This document shows positions 1,323 through 3,390 of a DNA stretch of 64,000 nt, piece by piece. The notes beneath the pieces are model-generated. The model saw only the letters and a program-made list of their open reading frames with translations. It was not told the origin of the DNA and searched no databases. This stretch comes from Escherichia coli (GTDB lineage: Bacteria; Pseudomonadota; Gammaproteobacteria; Enterobacterales; Enterobacteriaceae), in the NCBI RefSeq assembly GCF_048403405.1, contig NZ_CP183129.1. One strand, given 5' to 3'. A program made the translations under genes and the position numbers. Position 1 is the first letter of the stretch, and every line of letters begins with the position of its first letter.

Positions 1323-1403
1323 ATGAAAATTGCTGATCAATTTCATGATGAGTTATGTAGACTGGCCGCCATTAATTTTGAGGCACACGTACTACATGGC
1401 TGA
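1323..1403 (+). CDS. yrbN: small protein YrbN (26 aa), overlapping the deaD start
   Basis: Hand translation ATG..TGA gives [26 protein letters not shown]; matches my recollection of the K-12 small protein yrbN upstream of deaD; below the ORF-track size cutoff. Confidence 0.5.
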
Positions 1404-3285
1404 ATTCGAAACCACTTTTGCAGATCTGGGCCTGAAGGCTCCTATCCTTGAAGCCCTTAACGATCTGGGTTACGAAAAACCATCTCCAATTCAGGCAGAG
1501 TGTATTCCACATCTGCTGAATGGCCGCGACGTCCTGGGTATGGCCCAGACGGGGAGCGGAAAAACTGCAGCATTCTCTTTACCTCTGCTGCAGAATCTTG
1601 ATCCTGAGCTGAAAGCACCACAGATTCTGGTGCTGGCACCGACCCGCGAACTGGCGGTACAGGTTGCTGAAGCAATGACGGATTTCTCTAAACACATGCG
1701 CGGCGTAAACGTGGTTGCCCTGTACGGCGGCCAACGTTATGACGTGCAATTACGCGCCCTGCGTCAGGGGCCGCAGATCGTTGTCGGTACTCCGGGCCGT
1801 CTGCTGGACCACCTGAAACGTGGCACTCTGGACCTCTCTAAACTGAGCGGTCTGGTTCTGGATGAAGCTGACGAAATGCTGCGCATGGGCTTCATCGAAG
1901 ACGTTGAAACTATTATGGCGCAGATCCCGGAAGGTCATCAGACCGCTCTGTTCTCTGCAACCATGCCGGAAGCGATTCGTCGCATTACCCGCCGCTTTAT
2001 GAAAGAGCCGCAGGAAGTGCGCATTCAGTCCAGCGTGACTACCCGTCCTGACATCAGCCAGAGCTACTGGACTGTCTGGGGTATGCGTAAAAACGAAGCA
2101 CTGGTACGTTTCCTGGAAGCGGAAGATTTTGATGCGGCGATTATCTTCGTTCGTACCAAAAACGCGACTCTGGAAGTGGCAGAAGCCCTTGAGCGTAACG
2201 GCTACAACAGTGCCGCGCTGAACGGTGACATGAACCAGGCGCTGCGTGAGCAGACACTGGAACGACTGAAAGATGGTCGTCTGGACATCCTGATTGCGAC
2301 CGACGTTGCGGCCCGTGGCCTGGACGTTGAGCGTATCAGCCTGGTAGTTAACTACGATATCCCGATGGATTCTGAGTCTTACGTTCACCGTATCGGTCGT
2401 ACTGGTCGTGCGGGCCGTGCTGGCCGTGCGCTGCTGTTCGTTGAGAACCGTGAGCGTCGTCTGCTGCGTAACATTGAACGCACCATGAAGCTGACCATTC
2501 CGGAAGTTGAACTGCCGAACGCAGAACTGCTGGGCAAACGTCGTCTGGAAAAATTCGCCGCTAAAGTACAGCAGCAGCTGGAAAGCAGCGATCTGGATCA
2601 ATACCGTGCACTGCTGAGCAAAATTCAGCCGACTGCAGAAGGTGAAGAGCTGGATCTCGAAACTCTGGCCGCCGCACTGCTGAAAATGGCACAGGGTGAA
2701 CGTACTCTGATTGTTCCGCCAGATGCGCCGATGCGTCCGAAACGTGAATTCCGTGACCGTGATGACCGTGGTCCGCGCGATCGTAACGACCGTGGCCCGC
2801 GTGGTTACCGTGAAGATCGTCCGCGTCGTGAACGTCGTGATGTTGGCGATATGCAGCTGTACCGCATTGAAGTGGGCCGCGATGATGGTGTTGAAGTTCG
2901 TCATATCGTTGGCGCGATTGCTAACGAAGGTGACATCAGCAGCCGTTACATTGGTAACATCAAGCTGTTTGCTTCTCACTCCACCATCGAACTGCCGAAA
3001 GGTATGCCGGGTGAAGTGCTGCAACACTTTACGCGTACTCGCATTCTCAACAAGCCGATGAACATGCAGTTACTGGGCGATGCACAGCCGCATACTGGCG
3101 GTGAGCGTCGTGGCGGTGGTCGTGGTTTCGGTGGCGAACGTCGTGAAGGCGGTCGTAACTTCAGCGGTGAACGCCGTGAAGGTGGTCGTGGTGATGGTCG
3201 TCGTTTTAGCGGCGAACGTCGTGAAGGCCGCGCACCGCGTCGTGATGACTCTACCGGTCGTCGTCGTTTCGGTGGTGATGCGTAA
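1396..3285 (+). CDS. deaD: cold-shock DEAD-box ATP-dependent RNA helicase DeaD/CsdA
   Basis: ORF track 1330..3285; start moved to ATG 1396 ([13 protein letters not shown]...) for a 629-aa product; DEAD-box motifs ([22 protein letters not shown]); RG/RD-rich C-terminal tail. Confidence 0.95.
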
Positions 3286-3310
3286 TCATCGCTAAACAGC
3301 GAACACAATC

Positions 3311-3390
3311 TGTAAAATAATATATACAGCCCCGATTTTTACCATCGGGGCTTTTTTTCTGTCTTTTGTACTCGTGTACTGGTACAGTGC
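3311..3390 (+). promoter_or_regulatory. mtr control region: TyrR-box-like TGTAAA-N6-TATACA (about 3311-3328) and TrpR-operator-like GTACTCGTGTACTGGTACAG (about 3368-3390)
   Basis: Motifs read directly from the sequence; mtr is known to be controlled by TyrR and TrpR; the assignment of these exact sites is inference. Confidence 0.4.
3329..3358 (+). terminator. rho-independent terminator downstream of deaD
   Basis: GC-rich hairpin CCCCGAT...ATCGGGG followed by a T-run. Confidence 0.6.

Follow-up and report, generated by a model that had tools for sequence, protein, structure and literature searches.

The short open reading frame (ORF) at positions 1323–1403 of the window, i.e., the 64,000-nucleotide stretch of Escherichia coli DNA that was analysed, is almost certainly the annotated small gene yrbN, placed at the 3' end of the 838-nt leader of deaD (csdA). 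As judged from comparison of sequences, yrbN seems to be conserved more as an RNA element would be than as a peptide would, and its stop codon tracks the deaD ribosome-binding site. The ORF is real and conserved, but the gene and the interpretation given to it in a preliminary description of this DNA, which had pointed to a small ORF overlapping the deaD start in an arrangement typical of translational coupling or upstream-ORF control, are already known from the literature.

The identity of the ORF was evident from its translation and from existing annotation. The ORF list gave an ATG at 1323, a TGA at 1401–1403 and a product of 26 amino acids, on the + strand like nlpI, deaD and the leader elements described below; coordinates and peptide were exactly those of the preliminary description, and the gene, which had been called yrbN-like, could be named as yrbN itself from RefSeq annotation and an NCBIfam match. 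Thus, in the one E. coli record examined in detail, RefSeq 'protein YrbN' (WP_010723222.1) mapped exactly to window positions 1323–1403 and the deaD CDS of the same record mapped exactly onto 1396 onward, and 'protein YrbN' was annotated at matching coordinates in all ten E. coli records among the matches listed. A 351-nt query around the ORF matched 5425 of 5426 complete E. coli genomes (5424 at 99% identity or higher), and the features under this match were nlpI, yrbN and deaD. The peptide scored 76.3 bits (E = 9.4e-22) against the NCBIfam equivalog model NF033440 (small_YrbN), which has a curated cut-off of 33 bits, and the match was full length on both sides (residues 1–26 with model positions 1–26); a Pfam search with the same peptide matched no domain. 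Sequence, position between nlpI and deaD, length and the 8-nt overlap with deaD were all identical to those of yrbN from E. coli K-12 (UniProt C1P618), and with no difference noted between them the ORF is that gene. Discovery of yrbN is credited to Hemm et al. 2008 (as cited in bioRxiv 10.1101/2021.03.08.434349), and the citing 2021 preprint both describes the 8-nt yrbN/deaD overlap and proposes, as an idea, a leader-peptide role for yrbN. Synthesis of YrbN as a small protein is taken here from annotation and from the cited literature (Hemm et al. 2008, as cited in the same preprint).

The window contained, in order, the 3' end of pnp, nlpI (332–1216), a spacer of 179 nt, deaD (1396–3285) and mtr (from 3439). 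The spacer, earlier put at about 180 bp, was measured between the nlpI stop at 1214–1216 and the deaD ATG at 1396–1398. Since 67 ORFs of at least 20 amino acids were listed in the first 4 kb, the size of a 26-codon ORF is unremarkable alone, and it is conservation that goes beyond chance. The ORF occupies the last 73 bases of the deaD leader and runs 8 nt into deaD (ATGGCTGA, 1396–1403). Its TGA had been described as overlapping the deaD ATG out of frame; the out-of-frame overlap of the two ORFs was borne out, whereas the TGA itself lies over deaD codons 2 and 3 and not on the ATG. The deaD Shine-Dalgarno (SD) sequence GAGG (1380–1383), which is inside yrbN codons 20–21 and belongs to a GAGGCA invariant in all loci, forms a duplex of -5.6 kcal/mol with the anti-SD and is separated from the AUG by a long distance, 12 nt in E. 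coli and 9 nt in Serratia-type leaders. Long spacing of this kind suits a start that is helped by coupling. No SD sequence was found for yrbN, the sole anti-SD complementarity being a bulged match far upstream; the start of the ORF is A/U-rich, with AAA as second codon.

The start of deaD (the cold-shock RNA helicase gene, also csdA) at 1396 is the RefSeq start and the real one. The maximal ORF in this frame begins at a TTG at 1330, and the stretch from 1330 to 1395 was therefore considered as an N-terminal extension of DeaD. This candidate was rejected because the deaD frame is closed within 2–7 codons upstream of the ATG in 16 species, a finding that excludes a conserved N-terminal extension and confirms the start at 1396, and 1-nt indels found within the same stretch across species also speak against it.

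Transcription of deaD is reported to start 838 nt upstream of the ATG, from a promoter with the -10 sequence TATGAT (Ojha and Jain, PMC7430678). In the window, this start corresponds to position 558 and the -10 to 545–550, both inside nlpI, and the only promoter-like site found by a consensus scan of positions 400–1600 was the one at 523–550 (TTTATA-16-TATGAT), so that promoter and start together span 523–558. A promoter or intrinsic terminator within the nlpI–deaD spacer was rejected, as the scan found neither. Counted from the start at 558, yrbN takes up leader positions 766–846, i.e., it is a short ORF inside the 5' leader of a regulated gene. Leader-based regulation of deaD, which had been put forward as plausible, is in accord with published autoregulation by DeaD through its 5' UTR by way of Rho and RNase E, but the leader measures 838 nt and not the roughly 180 nt previously supposed. 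Autoregulation through this 838-nt UTR, by Rho-dependent termination and RNase E, was 25-fold and dropped to 1.4-fold on deletion of -820 to -101 in a study that makes no mention of yrbN (PMC7430678). The deletion keeps the whole yrbN module intact, and the module is therefore not sufficient for DeaD autoregulation. GFP constructs with or without the yrbN segment gave no signal either way (bioRxiv 10.1101/2021.03.08.434349), and therefore do not bear on coupling.

A search of Rfam, run with a permissive E-value, gave no family for the leader and only two sub-threshold matches, to SpF11 sRNA and anti-hemB (25 and 19 bits, with gathering scores of 54 and 49.5), at 3277–3358. These fell on a hairpin after deaD that resembles an intrinsic terminator (GCCCCGAT...ATCGGGGC and then a T run), and are most likely chance fits to the terminator shape. 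A GC-rich inverted repeat at 224–262 (CCCTCCGCTGCGGCGGGGGG and then CTTTT), right after the pnp stop in the pnp–nlpI spacer, looks from its sequence like a terminator or a processing hairpin.

Third codon positions of nlpI were unusually conserved from about position 512. Thus, among 62 Enterobacterales species, the third base was at least 95% invariant in 20–53% of codons per 30-codon segment of 512–1213 (at least 33% in seven of eight segments), compared with 13% of codons for 422–511 and 6% for deaD codons 4–100. This suggests that about 660 nt of the nlpI coding sequence (332–1216), i.e., the part downstream of 558, may double as constrained 5'-leader RNA of deaD. Directly after the nlpI stop lies a cold-box-like motif, TGACGTACACA (1218–1228), which agrees in 10 of 11 positions with TGACGTACAGA of the cspA 5' UTR, the 'cold box', and which occurs once in the window against 0.04 matches expected; CTGACGTAC was invariant in 78 species. 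With regard to cold shock, the legend to Figure 2 of PMC6001520 refers to a small protein 'yrbN_PAIR_0' that accumulates after cold shock, and the text of that paper assigns the panel to YnfR (next to cspI), the peptide of which is without similarity to YrbN; the legend seems to have retained a provisional name.

Conservation of yrbN was assessed in 80 loci from different Enterobacterales species, obtained from a genome-collection scan with DeaD residues 1–235 and belonging to the Enterobacteriaceae, Erwiniaceae, Pectobacteriaceae, Yersiniaceae, Hafniaceae and Morganellaceae. Enough upstream sequence was present in 79 of these. Conservation of the ORF and of its overlap with the deaD start across enterobacteria had been suggested as a check in the preliminary description, and the comparison supported both, the ORF being present in 79 of 79 species and ending over the deaD start in 70. 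Of these 70 species, 50 had the end of the ORF 8 nt inside deaD and 20 had it 11 nt inside, while in the other nine the stop preceded the deaD ATG by 11–16 nt and fell at the SD sequence or shortly before it. Thus, an ORF of 18 amino acids was closed by a TAA immediately 5' of the SD sequence in six species of Pantoea, Erwinia and Mixta, and one of 19 amino acids by a TGA overlapping the SD sequence in Serratia marcescens and two Dickeya species, where a spacer longer by 1 nt shifts the frame. Across all 79 species, the position of the stop was always between -16 and +11 relative to the deaD ATG, and the start of the ORF was an invariant ATGAA[AT]A, followed by a fixed stretch of 48 nt to ...CTGGC[CT]GCC. 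The yrbN frame was open from its own ATG to that of deaD in 70 of 79 species, and both other frames contained stops in all 79. Spacer lengths of 6, 9 or 12 keep the frame in 76 of the 79 species. When frame maintenance was judged by the count of indels, about five of eight inferred events were multiples of 3, which was not significant (binomial p of about 0.09).

The type of constraint on yrbN was indicated by the distribution of invariant columns (i.e., those at least 95% invariant) over codon positions. Values for positions 1, 2 and 3 were 54, 46 and 50% over all yrbN codons and 64, 64 and 64% over codons 7–17, compared with 61, 81 and 6% for deaD codons 4–100, and 62% of columns overall were invariant in the 32 nt of non-coding sequence upstream of the yrbN ATG. 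Pairwise Nei-Gojobori estimates were made in the annotated frame and in the two off-frames. For yrbN codons 2–16, pS was 0.22 and pN/pS was 0.64 in the annotated frame and 0.84 and 1.23 in the off-frames; for codons 7–16, the corresponding values were 0.17, 0.39, 0.71 and 1.02, and for 100 codons of deaD they were 0.58, 0.097, 1.9 and 5.5. Synonymous divergence of yrbN was, accordingly, about one third of that of deaD. Residues of YrbN that appeared conserved underwent radical replacements (C to R or S, E to K, A or V, D to V, N or T), and the C-terminal third of YrbN, which amounts to the deaD SD-to-ATG sequence translated in a different frame, is dropped in the nine species with peptides of 18–19 amino acids. 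Lack of conservation at the amino-acid level had been named beforehand as an outcome that would speak against the ORF. Its presence in 79 of 79 species stands on the favourable side, and constraint at the amino-acid level is weak: there is a weak signal in the correct frame on top of strong constraint at the nucleotide level, which includes synonymous sites and adjacent non-coding sequence.

Within the ORF, codons 10–16 form an invariant core (GAGTTATGTAGACTGGCCGCC, 1350–1370) that is unique in the window, is conserved at third positions too and is complementary both to an upstream box and to the deaD initiation region. The box (GAGCCGGTTCAC, 1303–1314) is invariant and non-coding. Codon 13 (1359–1361), in the middle of the core, is the rare arginine codon AGA in every species except for one Photorhabdus species with AGG; ribosomes might pause at it, or it may belong to the conserved pairing strand and nothing more.

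Outside the species described above, Pasteurella multocida has kept pnp–nlpI–deaD synteny, and yrbN, upstream box and core were all missing from its deaD leader. The same three elements were missing from two further DeaD loci (71–74% identical to the E. coli N-terminal query), the Pfam content of which fits nlpI directly upstream, as in Pasteurella, with pnp also visible in one. In two Plesiomonas-like deaD leaders (L083, 1227–1322, and L088, 557–652), the yrbN ORF was not intact, with an in-frame TAA in place of TTA in one and CTG in place of ATG in the other; upstream box, inner hairpin and core were still recognisable, and the helix between box and core was longer (9 bp). As far as these sequences indicate, the yrbN module appears to be confined to the Enterobacterales, with a degenerate form in Plesiomonas.

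Folding of the E. coli leader predicted an imperfect hairpin (helix T) between yrbN codons 10–16 (GUUAUGUAG...GCC, 1352–1367) and the deaD initiation region. The predicted 3' arm, CTACATGGC (1392–1400), consists of the deaD ATG and its flanks and pairs with GTTATGTAG (1352–1360), and GGC of the SD region (1382–1384) pairs with GCC at 1365–1367, so that the targets of the core are the SD GGC and CUACAUGGC at 1392–1400. Over 62 distinct leaders, the predicted mean probability that the deaD AUG is paired was 0.95 and that it is paired with the yrbN core was 0.75. Pairs 2–9 of the lower stem were standard in 55–62 of 62 sequences in anchored coordinates, with one-sided U.G/U-A alternation at the second codon of deaD. 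In a masking control performed with six representatives, the native upstream sequence was replaced by dinucleotide shuffles. Fractions of shuffles in which masking equalled or exceeded that of the native leader were 0.015, 0.005, 0.000, 0.065 and 0.005 for five of these and 0.32 for the Pantoea representative, in which the ORF stops before the SD sequence; the initiation region was more masked than in shuffles at a fraction of 0.015 or less in four of the six. Masking of a ribosome footprint on yrbN codons 9–16 raised the predicted accessibility of the AUG from 0.04 to 0.34–0.46. Helix T was not kept in Plesiomonas and was not favoured in Pantoea.

A different partner for the core was picked by the RNAalifold consensus. 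In this structure (helix U), GCCGGUU of the upstream box (1305–1311) pairs with GACUGGC of the core (1360–1366) and all seven pairs were standard in 46 of 46 distinct sequences of an alignment that includes the two Plesiomonas leaders, although helices T and U were both derived from the same sequences used to assess pairing. Four of these pairs showed one-sided changes that preserve pairing; sequences this close to invariant leave hardly any room for two-sided covariation, and next to none was seen. An A/U-rich inner hairpin, predicted in minimum free energy structures at 1324–1345 (TGAAA at 1324–1328 with TTTCA at 1341–1345) and including the yrbN start codon, was 70–100% paired at columns 24–28 with 41–45 of the alignment with Plesiomonas. 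The modelled helix U domain was 84.5% paired, compared with 29–48% when 3' partners were slid, and, with Plesiomonas included, four pairs of the modelled domain changed on both sides compared with 1.3 in shuffles, a value that none of 500 shuffles reached. In Plesiomonas, helix U grows to 9 bp by changes on both strands. For E. coli, predicted energies were -28.2 kcal/mol for the conformation with helix T and -25.3 kcal/mol for that with helix U, both of which share the core. Folding energy of the leader was unremarkable (z = -0.56 and -1.38, not significant), and the gap between the two conformations stayed at about 3 kcal/mol throughout 10 to 37 C, which lends no support to a simple thermosensor.

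The explanation that we favour, at about an even chance, is that yrbN is a translated leader ORF within an RNA module under constraint, by which deaD translation would be coupled or gated; we put a main role of yrbN in cis at a little under an even chance. According to this model, the core (1350–1370) would pair either with the upstream box (1305–1311) or with the deaD ribosome-binding region. Ribosomes starting at the A/U-rich yrbN AUG, which has no SD sequence, would open the paired core on their way and reach their stop over the deaD start (AUGGCUGA). Termination there would unmask the deaD SD sequence and AUG and hand the ribosome over, i.e., would combine unmasking with termination-reinitiation coupling, and translation of yrbN would also shield the final stretch of the leader from Rho and RNase E. 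The ORF, its overlap with deaD, the annotation, the pattern of conservation and the potential for pairing are established here; formation of the helices in vivo, an effect of yrbN translation on deaD output and the direction of this effect are inferred. A more specific form of the model is possible but rather doubtful. In this form, the yrbN core would be the middle strand of a three-strand RNA switch (box 1305–1311, core 1352–1367 and initiation region 1380–1400), nucleotide-frozen in the Enterobacterales, and yrbN would not primarily be a protein gene but the translated arm through which deaD translation is set by the passage of ribosomes and possibly also by DeaD helicase activity or by temperature, with about 660 nt of nlpI doubling as leader RNA.

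In favour of yrbN as a leader ORF acting in cis, we counted conservation at the nucleotide level, presence of the ORF in 79 of 79 species as the only open frame, location of the stop near the deaD ATG, predicted masking of the deaD AUG by the core, preservation of helix U, the long distance from SD sequence to AUG in deaD and the central part that the deaD leader plays in regulation by Rho and RNase E (PMC7430678). Counted against it were unremarkable folding energies, scarce covariation, derivation of the helices from the very sequences examined, loss of helix T in Plesiomonas and its weaker standing in Pantoea, weak support for frame maintenance from the indel pattern and insufficiency of the yrbN module for autoregulation as judged from the published deletion (PMC7430678).

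The same observations bear on three other explanations. YrbN might be a trans-acting small protein with a function of its own, for example in association with DeaD or the cold-shock machinery, and the overlap would then only ensure co-expression. The existence of a curated protein family (NF033440), a ten-residue motif recognisable across 44 distinct peptide variants, the invariant start codon and a pN/pS ratio that is lowest in the annotated frame (0.39–0.64 compared with 0.71–1.23 in the off-frames) agree with a protein, but this ratio exceeds that of deaD by a factor of 4–6, and nucleotide invariance, which extends to synonymous sites and the non-coding flank, confounds the low pN. Radical changes at conserved residues in some lineages, a C-terminal end of 7–8 residues that is dictated by the deaD ribosome-binding site and absent in nine species, the failure to match a Pfam domain, and Plesiomonas leaders that keep the RNA motifs but not the canonical ORF further reduce the appeal of this explanation, which we consider unlikely. 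Selection might, on the other hand, be on the RNA alone: helix U and the inner hairpin are kept in Plesiomonas leaders in which the ORF has no ATG or has an in-frame TAA. In that event, selection would act on an RNA element within the deaD leader, either a structure or a site bound by a protein, by Rho or by a ribonuclease, and the ORF would be incidental and its translation a by-product, as could also be argued from conservation without three-base periodicity, from an upstream non-coding box that is as invariant as the ORF and from the missing SD sequence of yrbN. Against an incidental ORF speak an ORF and ATG kept in 79 of 79 species, variable stretches that contain no stops, spacers of 6, 9 or 12 that keep the frame in 76 of 79, and three frameshifted lineages in which the ORF still ends exactly on the SD sequence. 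The annotated frame also has a pN/pS below 1, lower than that of either off-frame, and both the discoverers of YrbN (Hemm et al. 2008, as cited in bioRxiv 10.1101/2021.03.08.434349) and curators have accepted it as a small protein. An incidental ORF is, in our estimation, improbable to about the same degree as a trans-acting protein.

It is still less probable that yrbN is a repressive upstream ORF that lowers deaD translation, either because its ribosomes occlude the deaD SD sequence and AUG or because its translation stabilises the masked conformation. A stop that is always on or beside the deaD initiation region would suit such an ORF as well, but short overlaps with a stop a few nucleotides past the downstream AUG are classically linked to positive coupling, and predicted masking of the initiation region by the core implies that translation would open the site rather than close it. 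For repression, it can be said that the leader as a whole is repressive and that the authors of the preprint hold that yrbN 'may also repress' csdA (bioRxiv 10.1101/2021.03.08.434349).

Taken as a leader ORF that couples or gates deaD translation, yrbN shares features with several known arrangements. As in translationally coupled overlapping pairs, yrbN and deaD are on the same strand and overlap out of frame by 8–11 nt, the SD sequence of the downstream gene is inside the upstream ORF and sequence of this ORF is predicted to mask the initiation region of the gene that follows. Unlike typical pairs of this sort, the upstream partner has just 26 codons, no SD sequence and no demonstrated protein function, and in nine species it stops before the deaD AUG. 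Regulatory leader ORFs in long Rho-sensitive leaders are exemplified by mgtL, corL and tnaC. Resemblance to these was seen in the short ORF, in Rho-dependent premature termination (PMC7430678) and in alternative pairings predicted around the ORF, but yrbN is located at the very end of the leader, where it overlaps the regulated gene, and the mapped determinants of deaD autoregulation are mostly upstream of it. When features of sensing or stalling were sought among the 44 YrbN peptide variants, neither a run of codons for one amino acid nor a known arrest motif was found. The leader may also be likened to cold-shock 5' UTRs of the cspA type, in that deaD is cold-induced, the spacer carries a putative cold-box-like motif and alternative conformations are predicted. 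It differs from them in that this motif is about 100 nt upstream of yrbN, outside the yrbN feature, and in that the predicted energy gap between the two deaD-leader conformations is temperature-independent (about 3 kcal/mol from 10 to 37 C).

The present result finds an annotated gene again, and its value is mainly to confirm the recognition of yrbN in the preliminary description. What is added here is the pairing model and the comparative pattern, in which it is the nucleotides rather than the peptide that are constrained and in which the stop varies in position. Lists of E. coli small proteins without a known function routinely include YrbN. Should deaD translation be coupled or switched in the way proposed, the published autoregulation of a major cold-shock helicase through Rho and RNase E would gain a further, translational layer, and there would be reason for caution in reading conserved small ORFs as evidence of functional small proteins.
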